A stretch of DNA of 64,000 nt from an uncultured Chloroflexia bacterium (GTDB taxonomy: Bacteria; Chloroflexota; Anaerolineae; Anaerolineales; E44-bin32): positions 265,439 to 329,438 of the forward strand of contig CAVPZJ010000005.1 of assembly GCA_963710255.1 (NCBI GenBank), read 5' to 3'. Positions 57,754-62,825 of the stretch are shown here, piece by piece. Under the pieces are notes generated by a model. That model did no database searches and was not told the DNA's origin. It was given only the letters and a program-made list of their open reading frames with translations. How positions within the stretch are numbered: the stretch's first letter is position 1; the number at the start of each line of letters is the position of its first letter. A program made the translations under genes and the position numbers.

Positions 57754-57807
57754 GAACAAGTGTTCTAGGGTAGGTGCAGTATAGAACAGATGTTCTTTCC
57801 TTGTCAA
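57754..57807 (-). promoter_or_regulatory. Promoter with two LexA-type (GAAC-N4-GTTC) operators
   Basis: Minus strand: TTGACA (57807-57802), 18-nt spacer, TATACT (57783-57778). AGAACATCTGTTCT (57796-57783) fills the spacer. GAACACTTGTTC (57765-57754) lies downstream of the -10. Confidence 0.6.
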
Positions 57808-57879: not shown

Positions 57880-58797
57880 TCAGGCAGCCTGGGTGCGAGC
57901 GCGGGTATACAGCCGGATGATGAGCATGCCCAGGAGCATGGCCGGGAGCACAATCAGCCCCGCTTCGGGCCCAAAACCACCGCCTGTGATGAGGTCCGGA
58001 CCGGTTGTGGTTTGGCGGATGAGCGATTCGATCCGCAGCCCGCTTACCGGGAAGCCGAAGACGGTGCCTTCGAATAGGTTCCAGCCGACGTGCAGCCCGA
58101 TCGATAACCAGAGCTGGCGGGTGCGAATCCAACCATAGGCCAGGAAGATGCCGGCGGCAAAGATGCCCAGGCTGGAAAAGAGGCTGCTGTTCGGGTTGGC
58201 CAGGTGCAGCACTGCGAAAACGCTGGAGGAGAGGATCACGCCCCATTCCAGGTTGAGGCCATCCGCGAGGTTCTGCAGGTGATAACCCCGGCTGAGAAGC
58301 TCCTCGCTGATCCCTACCAGCGTGAAAAGAAGCAGCCCCTGAAGCAGGACGGGGAGCCAGGCTCCGCCAGCCATCGATTGCCAGGCGAAAGAGTCGATCG
58401 TCAACCACCCCATCGCCAGCTCGGTCATGAAGATCAAGCCCATCAACAGCGCGGGGATCCAGAAACCGACGAGCAGGTCCTTGACGGCATGGGCGTCGGG
58501 CCGGAAGCCCAGGGAAATGAAGCTGCGCCGATCGAGCCAGCGCCTGGCAGCGAAGGTGGCGAGGAGGATGGCAATCAGTTCGATCGTCGCATCCAGGGGA
58601 AGGCCGAGCTCGAACAGGCCTCCGTTGTTCCATAGGACCATCACCACGCCCAGCGTCAGCAGGCTCAAGCTCAGGCCGAAGAAGAGGGTGTGGAGCAGCA
58701 GACGCCAACCGGCGCGCAGGCGGGGTTCATCAGGTGACAGCAGAATCCGCCGAATCCAGGTCGACCGCCAAGGCTTTTGGGATGTCATCAGATGCAT
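57880..58797 (-). CDS. CPBP-family intramembrane glutamic endopeptidase (CAAX/Abi-type)
   Basis: Multi-TM protein with GISEELLSRGY (EExxxR) and FAVLHLANP (FxxxH) motifs. RBS GAGGAGG. Start at 58797 or 58788. Confidence 0.8.
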   Translation of the reverse strand: MHLMTSQKPWRSTWIRRILLSPDEPRLRAGWRLLLHTLFFGLSLSLLTLGVVMVLWNNGGLFELGLPLDATIELIAILLATFAARRWLDRRSFISLGFRPDAHAVKDLLVGFWIPALLMGLIFMTELAMGWLTIDSFAWQSMAGGAWLPVLLQGLLLFTLVGISEELLSRGYHLQNLADGLNLEWGVILSSSVFAVLHLANPNSSLFSSLGIFAAGIFLAYGWIRTRQLWLSIGLHVGWNLFEGTVFGFPVSGLRIESLIRQTTTGPDLITGGGFGPEAGLIVLPAMLLGMLIIRLYTRARTQAA

Positions 58798-58837
58798 ATC
58801 CTCCTCAGGGGCAGCGCCATCGTCGGGGTGGGCTGGA

Positions 58838-59521
58838 TCATGCTTCTGCCGCCCGGATAAGACGTCGGGCGAGGCCAGAGCCGAGCAAGGCCAGGCCATC
58901 TGTTGTCATGGCATGGCTGCAAGCCGCATCAAACAGGATGGAGGCACGTGCCGGAAAATCCTCATCCCCGGGCCAGAGTGCGGCACCGATCCTGATCCGC
59001 GGCAGAGGCTGGAAGGCATAGGCTGCCGGCGCAAGGTCCGGCAGGCGCTGCCCACCGAGTTGTGCGGCGGCGGTCGCCAGGTCGTCCAACTGGTCGCCGA
59101 AACGCCTGGCGAGCAGGTCGCCGCTGTAGCCCTGGAAAGCCTGGTTGTAGAACCCGCCATTGGGCAGCTCACGGAAGCCAATCCAGCGGTCAGCAAGCGG
59201 CGTCCCGTCGGCGGTGTCCAGGTAGTAGAAGACCATCGCCTGGTCGAAAGTGCTCAGCGGTTCCCCGTCGTCGACCCAGCGCACTTCAAGCCCAGGCCAC
59301 CCAACGAGGACCTGGCGCCCCCAGTACGCAAACCTCATTCCATCCGGCTCGATTGCCGCTTCCACCAGGGCCGCCAGGTGCTCGCGATTGCGCGACTGAA
59401 GCAGTTCCTGGAGTTCGCCCAGGCGGCGGGTCATGCTCGACTGCCAGGCTTCGTGCGCAGCGGCGATGGAGGCGTGCAGCGGGTCGCGGCCACCAGCGGC
59501 CTGGTCGGTGAGTCCCGGCAT
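58838..59521 (-). CDS. DUF3786-like protein
   Basis: Pattern ...VFYYLDTADGTPLADRWIGFRELPNGGFYNQAFQ...LWPGDEDFPARASILFD matches my memory of DUF3786. Start MPGLTDQ lies 2 nt after the upstream stop. Confidence 0.45.
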   Translation of the reverse strand: MPGLTDQAAGGRDPLHASIAAAHEAWQSSMTRRLGELQELLQSRNREHLAALVEAAIEPDGMRFAYWGRQVLVGWPGLEVRWVDDGEPLSTFDQAMVFYYLDTADGTPLADRWIGFRELPNGGFYNQAFQGYSGDLLARRFGDQLDDLATAAAQLGGQRLPDLAPAAYAFQPLPRIRIGAALWPGDEDFPARASILFDAACSHAMTTDGLALLGSGLARRLIRAAEA

Positions 59522-59523
59522 CC

Positions 59524-60852
59524 TCAATCCACCCGCATCTTTTCCATGTAATCTTTGATCGTCGGAAGGGCGGTCAGGCGTTCCTGGAAGAAGTTGTTCA
59601 CGAGGTTGATAATCTCCGCCCTGGTCGTCTCGACCTGGACCCGCCAAGCGTCGTCTTCCCCGCTCTTTCCGAGCAGACCGCGCAGCTGGAGCAGGGAGCG
59701 CACAATCTCGCTTTCCTGTTCGCCCTCGAGCGCTTCGACGACGGTCAAGATCAACTTGTCGGCTTGCTGGGTGAGGGTTTCGGCGGAGAACGTTCCGGGT
59801 TTGTCGACCACATCATCGATCGTCCGGATGAGCGACCAGACCTGGTACAGAGCCGTCGCGGGTTCATCGAAGAGCTCGCGCACGTAGGCAGCCTCCTCGT
59901 AGCGACCCGTCAAGCGGAAGATGTTGTACATGCGTTTGGCGGCCTTGCCGTAGTTGGCGTGCTGCCCGACGTATTTATGGACTTCCTTCTCCAGTTGGTG
60001 GACGTAGGATTCCAACGCATCGGCGGAAACGTGCTTGGCCAGCTTGGAGAAGAGCGGGATCGACTCGGCTTCCAGGTATACCTCCTGGAAGTAGGGGTCT
60101 AGGTACCCGTCGAGGGGTGTGATGCTGCCGTCGGGTGCCTCCCAGGTCACGTCGAGCATGTTGCTGGCGTTGGCCAGCGCCCCGCGCACGGGGTCGGCGA
60201 CGACCCAATCCAACTTGCACCAGCCTGGATCATCCGCGACCTGCATCCACTCGATCGATACGGGTTTTCCGTCGGCGCCGAGGGCGTCGATCCTGCCCGC
60301 CTGAAGCTCGTCTACCGACCAGGAGATAGGGGTGCCGGCGCGGTGAAACTGGTCCTCGCGGTTGACATCCGCCGGGTAGGAGCCGAATTTGACCTCGATC
60401 AACTGGTACGTTGGGCCGCTCAGGCTGTCGAGCGCTTTCGTGCGGATGAGATCGGCCAGGATGCTGCAGGCCTCCACCCGGGTCTCGGCGATGATGTTTA
60501 TCCGTTCGAAGTAGTCGCAGTCCCCGGGGTAGGTCTGGATCTTGGATTGGGCTGCGGAACCGGAGAGCGCAAGCGCCGTCTCAACCTTGCCCGGCGTGTC
60601 CTTGAATTCGACTAGCTGGCCGACCCGTCGAAAATAGGCCAAGTCATCCGGGCTGAAATCGAGCATGGTGACGGTGTGGCCGAACACACCGGCCTTGGTA
60701 TCGACGAGCACGTCTGCGCTGCCCTTGGCCGCGCTCACGGCCGAAAGCCATTGCAGCGCTTCCTCCTCATCCAACTCGACCCCCAGTCGAGCGGCAGATT
60801 GAAGGATGCGTTCGAGCGCCTCGCCGGCAGAGGATCCCTCTTGTTCTGGCAC
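59524..60852 (-). CDS. Unassigned 442-aa protein with nucleotidyltransferase-fold signature
   Basis: RBS GAGGAGGG 7 nt before GTG 60852. LALSGSAAQSKIQTYPGDCDYFERINI, i.e. G-S-x11-D-x-D (60514-60561). Long helical C-terminal half. I recognise no named family. Confidence 0.45.
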   Translation of the reverse strand: MPEQEGSSAGEALERILQSAARLGVELDEEEALQWLSAVSAAKGSADVLVDTKAGVFGHTVTMLDFSPDDLAYFRRVGQLVEFKDTPGKVETALALSGSAAQSKIQTYPGDCDYFERINIIAETRVEACSILADLIRTKALDSLSGPTYQLIEVKFGSYPADVNREDQFHRAGTPISWSVDELQAGRIDALGADGKPVSIEWMQVADDPGWCKLDWVVADPVRGALANASNMLDVTWEAPDGSITPLDGYLDPYFQEVYLEAESIPLFSKLAKHVSADALESYVHQLEKEVHKYVGQHANYGKAAKRMYNIFRLTGRYEEAAYVRELFDEPATALYQVWSLIRTIDDVVDKPGTFSAETLTQQADKLILTVVEALEGEQESEIVRSLLQLRGLLGKSGEDDAWRVQVETTRAEIINLVNNFFQERLTALPTIKDYMEKMRVD

Positions 60853-60882
60853 GTTTGTTCCCTCCTCAGGCTGGATCAGGTT

Positions 60883-61470
60883 TTAACTATCGCGGTTTAG
60901 CTGGCTCAAGATACGTTGAAACAGGTATGCCTGGTCCTGCGCATCTTGCAGTGCATTGTGAGAGAGCGTGACCGGGCTTTCAAGCCGTTCAGAGACGTGC
61001 TGCATCCCGGTCTCGGACCAGCGGATGTTGAGCAACCCCATCGCCAGGGCTTTCATGTCCAGCGCAGAATGTCCAAAGGGGTTTTCAACATCATACCGCT
61101 GGAAATAGGCCTGGACGAACATCCAATCGAAGGGAGCATTGTACGCGACGAAGATTGGAGGTCCAGCCGCGGCCCTGGCCAGGTTCGCCCAGCGGGCGAA
61201 CTCGCCCATGGCGCGGGCCGGGTCCACCCCGTCGATCTTCAGCTGCTCGATATCCAGGCCGCTAACCTTGAGCGCCTGGCGATCCACCAAGTCCCGATCG
61301 GGCTTTAGTTCCACGTAGAACGTTTGGCCCGGGTCTGCGACCTGGCAAGCCCCGATGGAGAGCATCGGATAGCGGGCTGGTGCCGGCCCGGCAGTCTCGA
61401 TATCAACCGAGATGTAGTTGGAATCCGTCCCCGTCTCAGCCTTCAATCTGTTGTCCTGGTCCAGGTCCAA
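60883..61470 (-). CDS. DEDDh 3'-5' exonuclease (DnaQ/RNase T-like)
   Basis: ISVDIETAG (Exo I), YNAPFDWMF (Exo II), HNALQDAQ (Exo III, H-x4-D). The TTG start is uncertain. Confidence 0.75.
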   Translation of the reverse strand: MDLDQDNRLKAETGTDSNYISVDIETAGPAPARYPMLSIGACQVADPGQTFYVELKPDRDLVDRQALKVSGLDIEQLKIDGVDPARAMGEFARWANLARAAAGPPIFVAYNAPFDWMFVQAYFQRYDVENPFGHSALDMKALAMGLLNIRWSETGMQHVSERLESPVTLSHNALQDAQDQAYLFQRILSQLNRDS

Positions 61471-61472
61471 GC

Positions 61473-62237
61473 CTAGCGGCCGCTGATCAGGTTGCCCAGG
61501 ATGTCGCCCCCGATGCCTGCGGCGCCCTTGCGTTCATCGACCTTCTGAAAACGGGCAGCCGCCAGCACGCGGTCGGCCAGGCGTGAGAACGGCAGGCTCT
61601 GCAGGTAGACCTTACCCGGACCGGTGAGGCGGGCCAGGAACAAGCCCTCTCCCCCGAAGAGTGCGTTGCGAAAACCCCCGATGAACTGGATGTCGTAGTC
61701 CACGGTCTCGGCGAAAGCAACCAGGCAGCCGGTGTCCACGCGCAGCGACTCGCCCGCAGCCAGCTCGCGTTCGATAATCGTGCCGCCGGCGTGTACGAAC
61801 GCCATCCCGTCCCCCTGCAGGCGCTGCAGGATGAAGCCTTCCCCGCCAAAGATCCCTGCGCCCAACCGCTTGGTGAAGGCGACCTCGATTTCGATCCCCT
61901 GGGCCGCGCACAGGAAGGAGTCCTTCTGGCATAGGATGCGCCCCCCGAAGGAGGTCAGGTCGATGGCGATGATCTTCCCCGGGTACGGCGCAGCAAAGGC
62001 GACTCGCTGTTTGCCCTGGCCGGTGTTGAGAAAGGCGGTGATGAAGAAGCTCTCACCCGTGAAGGCTCGCTTCAAACCTTTGAAGACGCCCCCGCCGGTG
62101 GAGGTTTGCATCTCGATCCCGTCATCCATGTAGGTCATCGTGCCCGCTTCGGCGCGCACGGCTTCACCAGGATCGAGCTCGATTTCAACCAGCTGCAGGT
62201 CATCGCCAAAAATCTTATGATCGATTACGTCGGCCAT
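61473..62237 (-). CDS. TIGR00266/AIM24 (DUF124) family protein
   Basis: LQLVEIELDPGEAVRAEAGTMTYM...FGGEGFILQRLQGDGMAFV...GGEGLFLARLTGPGKVYLQS repeats typical of AIM24. Confidence 0.7.
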   Translation of the reverse strand: MADVIDHKIFGDDLQLVEIELDPGEAVRAEAGTMTYMDDGIEMQTSTGGGVFKGLKRAFTGESFFITAFLNTGQGKQRVAFAAPYPGKIIAIDLTSFGGRILCQKDSFLCAAQGIEIEVAFTKRLGAGIFGGEGFILQRLQGDGMAFVHAGGTIIERELAAGESLRVDTGCLVAFAETVDYDIQFIGGFRNALFGGEGLFLARLTGPGKVYLQSLPFSRLADRVLAAARFQKVDERKGAAGIGGDILGNLISGR

Positions 62238-62254: not shown

Positions 62255-62277
62255 GGTCGTTCGTGCGTGGAGTTTAC
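62255..62277. repeat. Left copy of an imperfect direct repeat flanking the RAYT gene
   Basis: GGTCGTTCGTGCGTGGAGTTTAC. Compare the right copy at 62846-62864. Confidence 0.6.
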
Positions 62278-62319
62278 CAGAGATGAATGGGCGTTCCAAC
62301 CCTGGTGTGACCAGGTGGG

Positions 62320-62825
62320 TCAGGTTTGCACGAAGTATCGATCGAGTTCCCATCGAAGCGGATTTTCGAGGATGTATTGGCGGTAGCGGGCGAGATCGGT
62401 TTCATCCCGGATGACGTGGTCGTAGAAATTGCGCTGCCAGAACTGTGTCCCAATGCTGCCGGTGAGCAAGTTGATCGATTTTGTAGTCTCGTACTTGTAG
62501 TAGGCAATAACTTCTCCGAGGGTTTCACGTTTTGTAGGGGCGGGGTCACCCCGCCCCTACGATTTGGTGATTCCTCAATGATGATGATTGCATGCAAGTG
62601 ATTTGGCATGATTACGTAATCATCAACCGAGACTCGGTTGAAATGCACTTGTGTGTGAGTCCAAAACTTGTCAGCGATCGTGCCTTCATTCGACGGTGAA
62701 AAAAGACCTCCGATGATTTTTCCTAGCCGGCATTCCCTACGGTTTACACAAATCGTCACGAAATACGCCCCGGGCTGAGCATAATCGTAGTTTGAGAGGC
62801 GCAGAGATTTTCTACCGGAACACAC
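62320..62825 (-). mobile_element. REP-associated tyrosine transposase (RAYT, IS200/IS605 TnpA-like), one frame break
   Basis: SLRLSNYDYAQPGAYFVTICV, VIMPNHLHAII (HuH). After a shift near 62520 the C-terminus reads ETLGEVIAYYKYETTKSINLL...FWQRNFYDHVIRDETDLARYRQYILENPLRWELD (catalytic Tyr region), with stop at 62320-62322. Confidence 0.75.
62534..62560. repeat. Perfect GC-rich palindrome inside the RAYT coding sequence
   Basis: GTAGGGGCGGGG-tca-CCCCGCCCCTAC, 12-bp arms. Encodes ...RRGGVTPPLQ... Confidence 0.8.

Follow-up and report, generated by a model that had tools for sequence, protein, structure and literature searches.

The window analysed here is a 64,000-nucleotide stretch of contig CAVPZJ010000005.1 from an uncultured member of the Anaerolineales (Chloroflexota; GenBank assembly GCA_963710255.1). 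Positions 57880-62237 contain five co-directional open reading frames (ORFs) on the minus strand, two of which are the subject of this analysis. The first (60883..61446; 187 amino acids from a TTG at 61446; PF16473/PF00929) encodes a DEDDh exonuclease similar to Cap18 of the cyclic-oligonucleotide-based antiphage signalling system (CBASS), and the second (59524..60852; GTG start) encodes a 442-residue nucleotidyltransferase (NTase) of an unnamed family, here called X442. They are preceded by a gene for an AIM24/TIGR00266 family protein (61473-62237; PF01987, 1e-77; TIGR00266, 5e-44) and followed by genes for a DUF3786 protein (58838..59521; 227 amino acids from ATG 59521; PF12654, 1e-39) and a CPBP/Rce1-like intramembrane protease (57880..58797; start at ATG 58797 or 58788; PF02517, 1.6e-17). 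The conserved unit across the Chloroflexota consists of two genes, exonuclease and X442, and not of all five.

An earlier note, made from the sequence of the window alone, had described the five genes as tightly packed and preceded by strong ribosome-binding sites, which is confirmed by the ORFs, by profile searches and by a reading of the junctions. The stop codon of the exonuclease and the GTG of X442 are 30 nucleotides (nt) apart, with a Shine-Dalgarno sequence (GAGGAGGG; 60860..60867, minus strand) 7 nt before the start, and the stop codon of X442 precedes the ATG of the DUF3786 gene by 2 nt (TGAGGATG). The gap between the DUF3786 and CPBP genes is 40 nt if the latter begins at ATG 58797, which sits just 2 nt past a GAGGAGG, or 49 nt if it begins at ATG 58788, where the spacing to the ribosome-binding site is better. 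The longest ORF of the exonuclease (60883-61470, minus strand; 195 amino acids) begins at TTG 61470, the only start that gives a gap of 2 nt to AIM24. Because the database gene call for the source genome (P0310) has 187 amino acids, implying TTG 61446, the exonuclease probably starts at the latter codon, at a distance of 26 nt from AIM24 and not 2. Such tight packing is ordinary in bacterial operons and is by itself no proof of a functional unit.

X442 has no match in Pfam, NCBIfam, PADLOC or PHROGs, nor among the sequences of the PDB (phmmer), in agreement with the previous statement that it cannot be placed in a named family. In 20 diverse members of the family, Pfam likewise gives no match at E ≤ 10. 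More than 6,223 homologues are found at E ≤ 1e-3, which form 577 clusters at 50% identity. The species genomes that encode them number at least 577 and belong almost entirely to Chloroflexota, mostly to Anaerolineae; among the best 80 of these genomes, identity to X442 is 62-82%. Every one of the top 120 matches (67-82% identity) is labelled 'hypothetical'.

The signature of a Pol-beta-type enzyme, G-S-x11-D-x-D, which had been recognised by eye in the earlier note, is well supported. It lies in the motif LSGSAAQSKIQTYPGDCDYF (residues 96-115), where L-S-G98-S99-x11-D111-C-D113-Y fits the pattern hG[GS]-x9-13-[DE]h[DE]h. G98, S99, D111 and D113 (codons G98 to D113 at 60514..60561, minus strand; hG[GS]-x11-DhDh) are invariant in an alignment of 74 homologues and are kept in members that are only ~30% identical. 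E153 (codon 60394..60396, minus strand), in the context I152-E153-V154 on beta-3 (h[DE]h), is predicted from the topology to be the third catalytic carboxylate, which would complete the signature. It is at least 90% conserved in the same alignment, every distant member shown has E or D at its position, and in the AlphaFold2 models it sits in the middle of a strand (residues 149-158).

The AlphaFold2 model of full-length X442 has a predicted template-modelling score (pTM) of 0.71; a model of the core (residues 62-265) has a predicted local distance difference test score of 86 and a pTM of 0.85 and presents the canonical layout of strand, GS, helix, and strand with DxD. In the model, a helical segment at the N-terminus (of low confidence) precedes the Pol-beta core, which together with its beta-rich insertion spans residues ~66-260; residues 262-441 form a helical domain, in agreement with the helical C-terminal half proposed before. 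The insertion, of ~100 residues, is rich in Trp, has conserved residues (W178, W202, K213-D215-W216, D234, W237, D248-G249 and an FQEVY motif) and is unmatched in comparisons with terminal and minimal NTases; the helical domain bears the motifs KxAxRxYN and FDEP. No RNA-binding domain was detected with Pfam in X442 or in the 20 diverse members. By its motif and its modelled fold, X442 is a nucleotidyltransferase of the Pol-beta superfamily that stands outside any named family, and it is likely to be an active one.

Some distant members of the family have a different architecture. P0244 (1291 amino acids), P0169 (1067 amino acids), P0219 and P0210 are long proteins that end in the X442 module, and the domains fused to it in such proteins are AbfB, F-box-associated (FBA), C-type-lectin, PLAT or PQQ-like beta-propeller domains. 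Other distant members have N-termini that resemble signal peptides, and some branches of the family may be secreted or surface-associated. The fusion partners (AbfB, FBA, lectin and beta-propeller) were considered as a source of mechanistic clues and discarded as uninformative for the cytoplasmic proteins of Anaerolineae.

The fold comparison proposed in the earlier note returned a nucleotidyltransferase fold, and the nearest structures are those of giant viruses. In a Foldseek search of the PDB, only the 'new nucleotidyl transferase' of Megavirus and Mimivirus (4XUL, 4AMQ and 4AMS) gives significant matches. Mg662 of Megavirus chilensis, solved with GTP (4XUL), aligns to full-length X442 over 445 columns at E 5e-7; the core of X442 matches 4AMQ at 1e-4 and 4AMS at 3e-4, the three entries spanning E 1e-4 to 1e-3 at a TMq of ~0.5. 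In BFVD, 15 proteins of giant viruses or virophages are found at E < 1e-3 (best 1.4e-13; TM ~0.6), among them a 442-residue Zamilon protein (V6BPH6), proteins annotated as 'V21 virophage-like', as 'L544-like helical domain' or, in Pithovirus, as 'nucleotidyl transferase', and proteins of Mavirus, YSLV5 and QLV. All significant fold matches are annotated nucleotidyltransferases or viral homologues of such enzymes.

X442 and the NTases of the Mg662/L544 type (L544 and Mg662 are presumably orthologs), together with the V21-like proteins of virophages, have a common fold over both the catalytic core and the helical domain (TM 0.5-0.6) and are of similar length. By contrast, identity in the structural alignments is only 9-17%, and the viral proteins belong to eukaryotic viruses. 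The relationship escapes detection by sequence, as both phmmer and a hidden Markov model of the 74-sequence alignment miss 4xul, 4amq and 4ams among all PDB sequences at E ≤ 10. To our knowledge, the NTases of giant viruses and virophages have no exonuclease partner. The literature search yielded nothing usable on Mg662, 4XUL, 4AMQ, 4AMS, virophage V21, or Cap18 in combination with other NTases.

The resemblance of X442 to other cellular NTases is less specific. FAM46/TENT5, KNTase/ANT and the class I PAP/CCA enzymes have in common with X442 the triad hG[GS]...DhDh...hEh, a short spacing from DxD to E, and a core followed by a helical domain, but none of them gives a significant fold match (E 0.05-0.8, TM < 0.3). 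Likewise, the cGAS/DncV-like nucleotidyltransferases (CD-NTases), FAM46, ANT/AadA and MiD51 occur among the Foldseek results without reaching significance (E 0.05-1, TM < 0.3). A resistance enzyme of the ANT/KNTase type was rejected as an identity for X442 in view of these non-significant matches and of its core-like distribution.

The exonuclease, judged by its sequence, is a close homologue of Cap18, well above its similarity to other DEDDh families. Its match to PDLC00753, a PADLOC model named 'Effector/Exonuclease', is full-length and reaches 4e-62 (207 bits), compared with 66 bits for a CRISPR-associated DEDDh model. In the PDB, the best match is 7T2S (3e-39, ~47% identity, 138 bits); the next match is at 2e-8, and the exonuclease of PolC and RNase T score 38 and 25 bits. 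Source annotations of the exonuclease read 'ribonuclease T' or 'Pol III epsilon-like'. 7T2S is the CBASS-associated exonuclease Cap18 of Escherichia coli upec-117 (PMC12345164, PMC11208441; named in PMC9122588). According to a preprint (bioRxiv 10.1101/2025.03.04.641389), the Cap18/CBASS Exo clade, including the upec-117 enzyme, has no detectable activity on single- or double-stranded DNA or RNA and selectively cleaves the 2'-5'-linked linear dinucleotide intermediates of cGAS-like enzymes, as well as 2-5A; this cleavage sets an activation threshold. The close homology to a CBASS accessory exonuclease lends substance to the intuition of the earlier note that the locus recalls nucleotide signalling.

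The catalytic residues D23, E25, D115, H171 and D176 (numbering of the 195-residue ORF) are intact. The DEDDh residues, N111, P29 and an NPFG motif are at least 95% conserved among 47 orthologs from Anaerolineae, and the DEDDh residues are present also in Cap18. When mapped by a constant numbering offset of +14, and not by direct alignment, the VcExo pocket residues that hold a 2'-5' dinucleotide in place (P15, D49, E51, V55, N97 and F120) correspond to P29, D63, Q65, V69, N111 and H134; by this mapping, four of the six agree (P29, D63, V69 and N111), whereas Q65 takes the place of E and H134 that of F. At position 134, three of four plasmid-borne or CBASS enzymes have F; H predominates among the sampled Chloroflexota enzymes, 24 of which have it. 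A crude neighbour-joining tree tentatively places the exonucleases of CBASS as sister to the X442-linked clade of Anaerolineae, with the divergently oriented copies of Chloroflexota just outside.

Homologues of the exonuclease with 44-49% identity are carried by 96 plasmids. By PADLOC, the homologue on a Pseudomonas amygdali plasmid belongs to a type II CBASS (cyclase, SAVED-HNH, ThiF and JAB) and that on a Bradyrhizobium plasmid to a type III CBASS (HORMA, TRIP13 and TIR). The exonuclease of the window is not part of a CBASS operon, and no CBASS component is present in its cluster or in the related loci. Another Cap18 homologue, 47% identical to that of the window, is found on an E. coli IncC plasmid (locus L161; CP042646.1, 17005-17532), where its neighbours are hypothetical and PADLOC recognises no CBASS cyclase, HORMA, TRIP13 or effector. 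Together with an example from a Borg (PMC11208441), it suggests further contexts outside CBASS for Cap18-like exonucleases.

The linkage between the two genes was followed through 160 X442 loci with flanking DNA, 80 from species-representative genomes and 80 from metagenome contigs, which were grouped by the identity of their X442 homologue to that of the window. In 91 of the 144 loci whose sequence extends 700 bp or more upstream of X442, an exonuclease homologue lies within 400 bp. Adjacency declines with divergence, from 9 of 9 loci at ≥70% identity to 74 of 100 at 60-70%, 8 of 31 at 50-60%, and none of four below 50%. The exonuclease occurs in four arrangements, upstream or downstream of X442 and on either strand; the upstream, co-directional arrangement is the usual one, and in five loci (L100, L101, L103, L126 and L128) the exonuclease is transcribed divergently. 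All other neighbours vary between lineages. Because the linkage with the exonuclease survives rearrangement while every other neighbour changes, the two proteins are very probably functional partners, though not obligatory ones. The link between nucleotidyltransferase and exonuclease seen in the earlier note is thus conserved.

In three loci from a divergent branch of Chloroflexota (L108, L122 and L159), another DEDDh exonuclease, which shares 33-35% identity with that of the window, is encoded just downstream of X442 and replaces the upstream Cap18-like enzyme; it may represent an independent recruitment of the partner. The 64 loci without any exonuclease match show no recurrent substitute hydrolase or effector, only housekeeping genes.

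A reading in which X442 acts alone on an acceptor other than nucleic acid, by nucleotidylylation of the ANT/KNTase type or by AMPylation or GMPylation of proteins, with the exonuclease as an unrelated, syntenic neighbour, is improbable. It would accommodate the 37% of loci that lack an adjacent exonuclease and the weak fold matches to AadA and ANT(3'')(9), and the signal-peptide-like N-termini and the lectin and beta-propeller fusions of distant members imply roles without a cytoplasmic exonuclease. Inertia, however, is a poor explanation for a linkage that survives inversion or relocation of the exonuclease (upstream on the opposite strand, or downstream on either strand) amid changing neighbours; moreover, the ANT matches are not significant (E 0.5-0.8), and a resistance enzyme is unlikely to be so conserved throughout a class.

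The five genes of the cluster are not a conserved unit, because only three of the 73 loci with enough flanking DNA hold all of them. In these three (L003, L005 and L110), which come from close relatives, X442 is 72-74% identical. The earlier note had treated the cluster as a unit and had itself named a lack of co-localisation in other genomes as the finding that would speak against this view; of the conserved neighbourhood that it had asked about, the exonuclease pair remains and the five-gene set does not. AIM24, which had been suspected of being a bystander, is indeed one: it adjoins X442 in 6 of 117 loci, each with at least 70% X442 identity, and is syntenic in the closest relatives only, which is why it was rejected as a part of the module. 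The CPBP protease lies within 6 kb downstream of X442 in only 7 of 80 loci and has no PADLOC match; it, too, is a bystander that is not linked to the nucleotidyltransferase, contrary to what had been proposed. DUF3786, likewise a suspected bystander, adjoins X442 downstream in 22 of 128 loci (9 of 9 at ≥70% identity, 13 of 89 at 60-70%, and none of 30 below). It is a lineage-limited neighbour, adjoining X442 in the nearer relatives only, and an accessory role is possible.

Several observations concern the surroundings of the pair. In L002, L003 and L005, an additional gene separates CPBP from DUF3786. In L035, L051 and L073, X442, DUF3786, CPBP and TM235, a membrane protein of 235 amino acids, follow each other in this order (with SLT in addition in L035 and L051) in the absence of the exonuclease; because these loci keep the downstream block without it, the linkage of the exonuclease and the downstream synteny are independent of each other. 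In the window, a scan of the cluster for promoters and terminators found no internal terminator above the shuffle expectation, and its sole strong promoter-like site is downstream of CPBP. This near-consensus site of the sigma-70 type (57778-57807, minus strand; TTGACA, an 18-nt spacer and TATACT; 11 of 12 matches) lies between the stop of CPBP (57880) and the start of TM235 (57737), so that the 'lysis-like' pair of TM235 and SLT probably has a promoter of its own and is separate from the cluster.

A further locus (L004; JAIWHF010000124.1), labelled 'Methanosarcinales archaeon', has 71% X442 identity and the syntenic order aldehyde dehydrogenase, exonuclease, X442 and DUF3786, and is most likely an Anaerolineales contig that was mis-binned into an archaeal metagenome-assembled genome. 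The ORF at 62274-62825 (minus strand), which the earlier note had taken for a RAYT insertion beside the cluster, finds no match in Pfam at a threshold as loose as E ≤ 5, and its C-terminal half appears to be of low complexity or out of frame. Because L001, L003 and L005 have homologues of 39-54% identity at this place between aldehyde dehydrogenase and AIM24, it is no recent, genome-specific insertion, and the RAYT call is unconfirmed. An Rfam scan found no riboswitch near the cluster, only distant tRNAs; these are four tRNA genes (RF00005; 48479-50369, plus strand) upstream of the region of ribosomal protein L7/L12 and are unrelated to the cluster.

The earlier note had compared the locus with defence architectures and its nucleotidyltransferase with CD-NTases, and neither comparison holds. 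At E ≤ 0.1, no cyclase model of PADLOC recognises X442, whereas a CD-NTase from a Pseudomonas plasmid, used as a positive control, matches 21 of them (best 2.8e-241). Since a significant Foldseek match to a CD-NTase (cGAS/DncV-like) fold is also absent, the identification of X442 as a CD-NTase was rejected for want of both profile and fold support. PADLOC, which the note had suggested as a check, reports no defence system, and the only match of effector type among the genes of the window is the model of the exonuclease itself. Among the 160 loci, there is no recurrent SAVED, STING, TIR, nuclease, transmembrane or phospholipase effector. Genes that recur beside the pair are rpoD and dnaG, which lie upstream on the other strand, and a fused glyQS downstream; other lineages have NAD synthase with a major facilitator superfamily transporter, or else comEA/comEC, rpsT and the gene of a class I aminoacyl-tRNA synthetase. 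Homologues of X442 are absent from 72,556 plasmids and 50,697 phage records, and its inheritance in Chloroflexota looks vertical.

A role of the pair in defence is unlikely because of these housekeeping flanks, the high conservation throughout the class, the absence of homologues from plasmids and phages, and the lack of a conserved effector. The likeness to the type III CBASS of E. coli upec-117 is that an NTase stands beside a DEDDh exonuclease of the same clade, here ~47% identical and with the DEDDh residues and, as mapped by the numbering offset, most pocket residues kept. However, X442 is no CD-NTase, and an effector and HORMA/TRIP13 or E1/E2/JAB genes are missing. Also, the X442 pair is chromosomal and flanked by housekeeping genes and is not located on a mobile defence island. 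A divergent CBASS-like or abortive-infection (Abi) system, formed by the five genes or by nucleotidyltransferase, exonuclease and CPBP, with CPBP as the membrane effector, would be consistent with the tight packing and with the presence of a Cap18-family exonuclease beside an NTase, and CPBP/Abi-type proteases are found in some Abi systems. Nevertheless, it is highly improbable in view of the negative cyclase and fold searches, the loss of the five-gene set and the high conservation of X442, which is unlike that of the fast-evolving, patchy genes of defence. CPBP was rejected as a membrane effector because it is not co-conserved with X442.

The reading preferred here, which is tentative and has somewhat less than an even chance of being correct, is that the pair consists of a synthase and a degradase of a non-canonical nucleotide product whose role is physiological and not immune. 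X442 would use NTPs, possibly GTP as in Mg662, to form a short non-canonical product, most likely one that contains a 2'-5' phosphodiester. The exonuclease would act like CBASS Exo/Cap18 with cGAS-like enzymes, hydrolysing this product or a released intermediate, and would thereby set the steady-state level of the product. The latter would serve as a physiological signal or mark and not in abortive infection. The involvement of 2'-5' chemistry is in itself possible, if rather doubtful, and the product chemistry, the substrate of the exonuclease and the biological role of the pair are inferred. Pairs of a 2'-5' synthase and a degradase, such as OAS and PDE12, present a functional likeness, an NTase with a phosphodiesterase of a clade that reportedly cleaves 2'-5' linkages, including 2-5A; by contrast, X442 has no homology to OAS/Mab21, and an RNase L-like receptor is missing here.

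In seven loci of Anaerolineae, X442 is followed on the same strand by a 2H/LigT-like phosphoesterase (PF13563, '2'-5' RNA ligase superfamily', 2.8e-13) and then by DUF1232. The phosphoesterase is encoded directly downstream in L061 (7327-7917, plus strand), L020 and L059 and after an ORF of 168 amino acids in L052, L068, L069 and L075. The 2H/LigT family includes 2'-5' and cyclic-phosphate phosphodiesterases. The neighbour fits such chemistry and could be a third, lineage-specific component.

The main rival, a somewhat unlikely one, is the tailing or repair of RNA 3' ends, in which X442 would extend a stable RNA, such as tRNA, that the DEDDh enzyme would then trim, analogous to the cycle of end turnover by RNase T and the CCA-adding enzyme in E. 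coli; in some lineages, the LigT-like 2H enzymes would heal the ends. The spacing from DxD to E153 and the architecture of an NTase with a helical domain resemble PAP, FAM46 and KNTase, with weak Foldseek matches to FAM46C and FAM46A. The labels 'ribonuclease T' and 'Pol III epsilon-like' given to the exonuclease, the housekeeping and translation genes nearby (glyQS, class I aminoacyl-tRNA synthetase, rpsT, rpoD/dnaG), the 2H/LigT phosphoesterase adjoining in seven loci and the core-gene-like phyletic pattern point in the same direction. However, the score of the exonuclease against Cap18 (138 bits) far exceeds that against RNase T (25 bits), and its clade is reportedly inactive on DNA and RNA (bioRxiv 10.1101/2025.03.04.641389). 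Moreover, an RNA-binding domain was not detected in X442 with Pfam, and the FAM46 matches are not significant (E 0.05-0.3, TM < 0.25).

Several points weigh against the pairing of a synthase with a degradase. An adjacent exonuclease is missing in 53 of the 144 loci (37%), being present in only 8 of 31 at 50-60% X442 identity and in none of the four most divergent. The spacing of ~40 residues between DxD and E is nearer to that of minimal, KNTase- and PAP-type NTases than to that of OAS, cGAS and CD-NTases. The stacking residue F120 of VcExo is replaced by His in most enzymes of Anaerolineae, as mapped by the numbering offset. The 2'-5' specificity of the Cap18 clade rests on a preprint, and the neighbour-joining tree is crude. 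No enzymology of X442 or its viral relatives was found in the literature searched. Finally, a signal would have no identified reader, because the neighbourhood holds no conserved gene for a receptor or an effector.

An extended version of the synthase-degradase reading, which is unlikely, envisages X442 as a new bacterial family of primer-independent NTases that would make a 2'-5'-linked (oligo)nucleotide second messenger with a housekeeping, non-immune function in Chloroflexota, with the Cap18-like exonuclease as its off-switch. The Cap18/Exo of CBASS would have been recruited from this pair, or would be a recent co-descendant with it, and the viral NTases would make or mimic similar nucleotides during infection.

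The exonuclease-X442 pair is widely conserved and previously undescribed. A fold, a predicted catalytic triad and a partner enzyme can now be assigned to a family of more than 6,000 'hypothetical' proteins with strong conservation throughout a major class of bacteria, and the ORFan NTases of giant viruses (L544/Mg662) and virophages (V21-like) gain a cellular counterpart with a genomic context. Close chromosomal relatives of the Cap18/Exo clade, which had been known solely as a CBASS regulator, are paired with a different NTase; this bears on the origin of CBASS accessory genes and on the question whether 2'-5' nucleotide chemistry serves non-immune purposes in bacteria. If the pair instead serves the tailing and trimming of RNA ends, it would still define a new family of nucleotidyltransferases.

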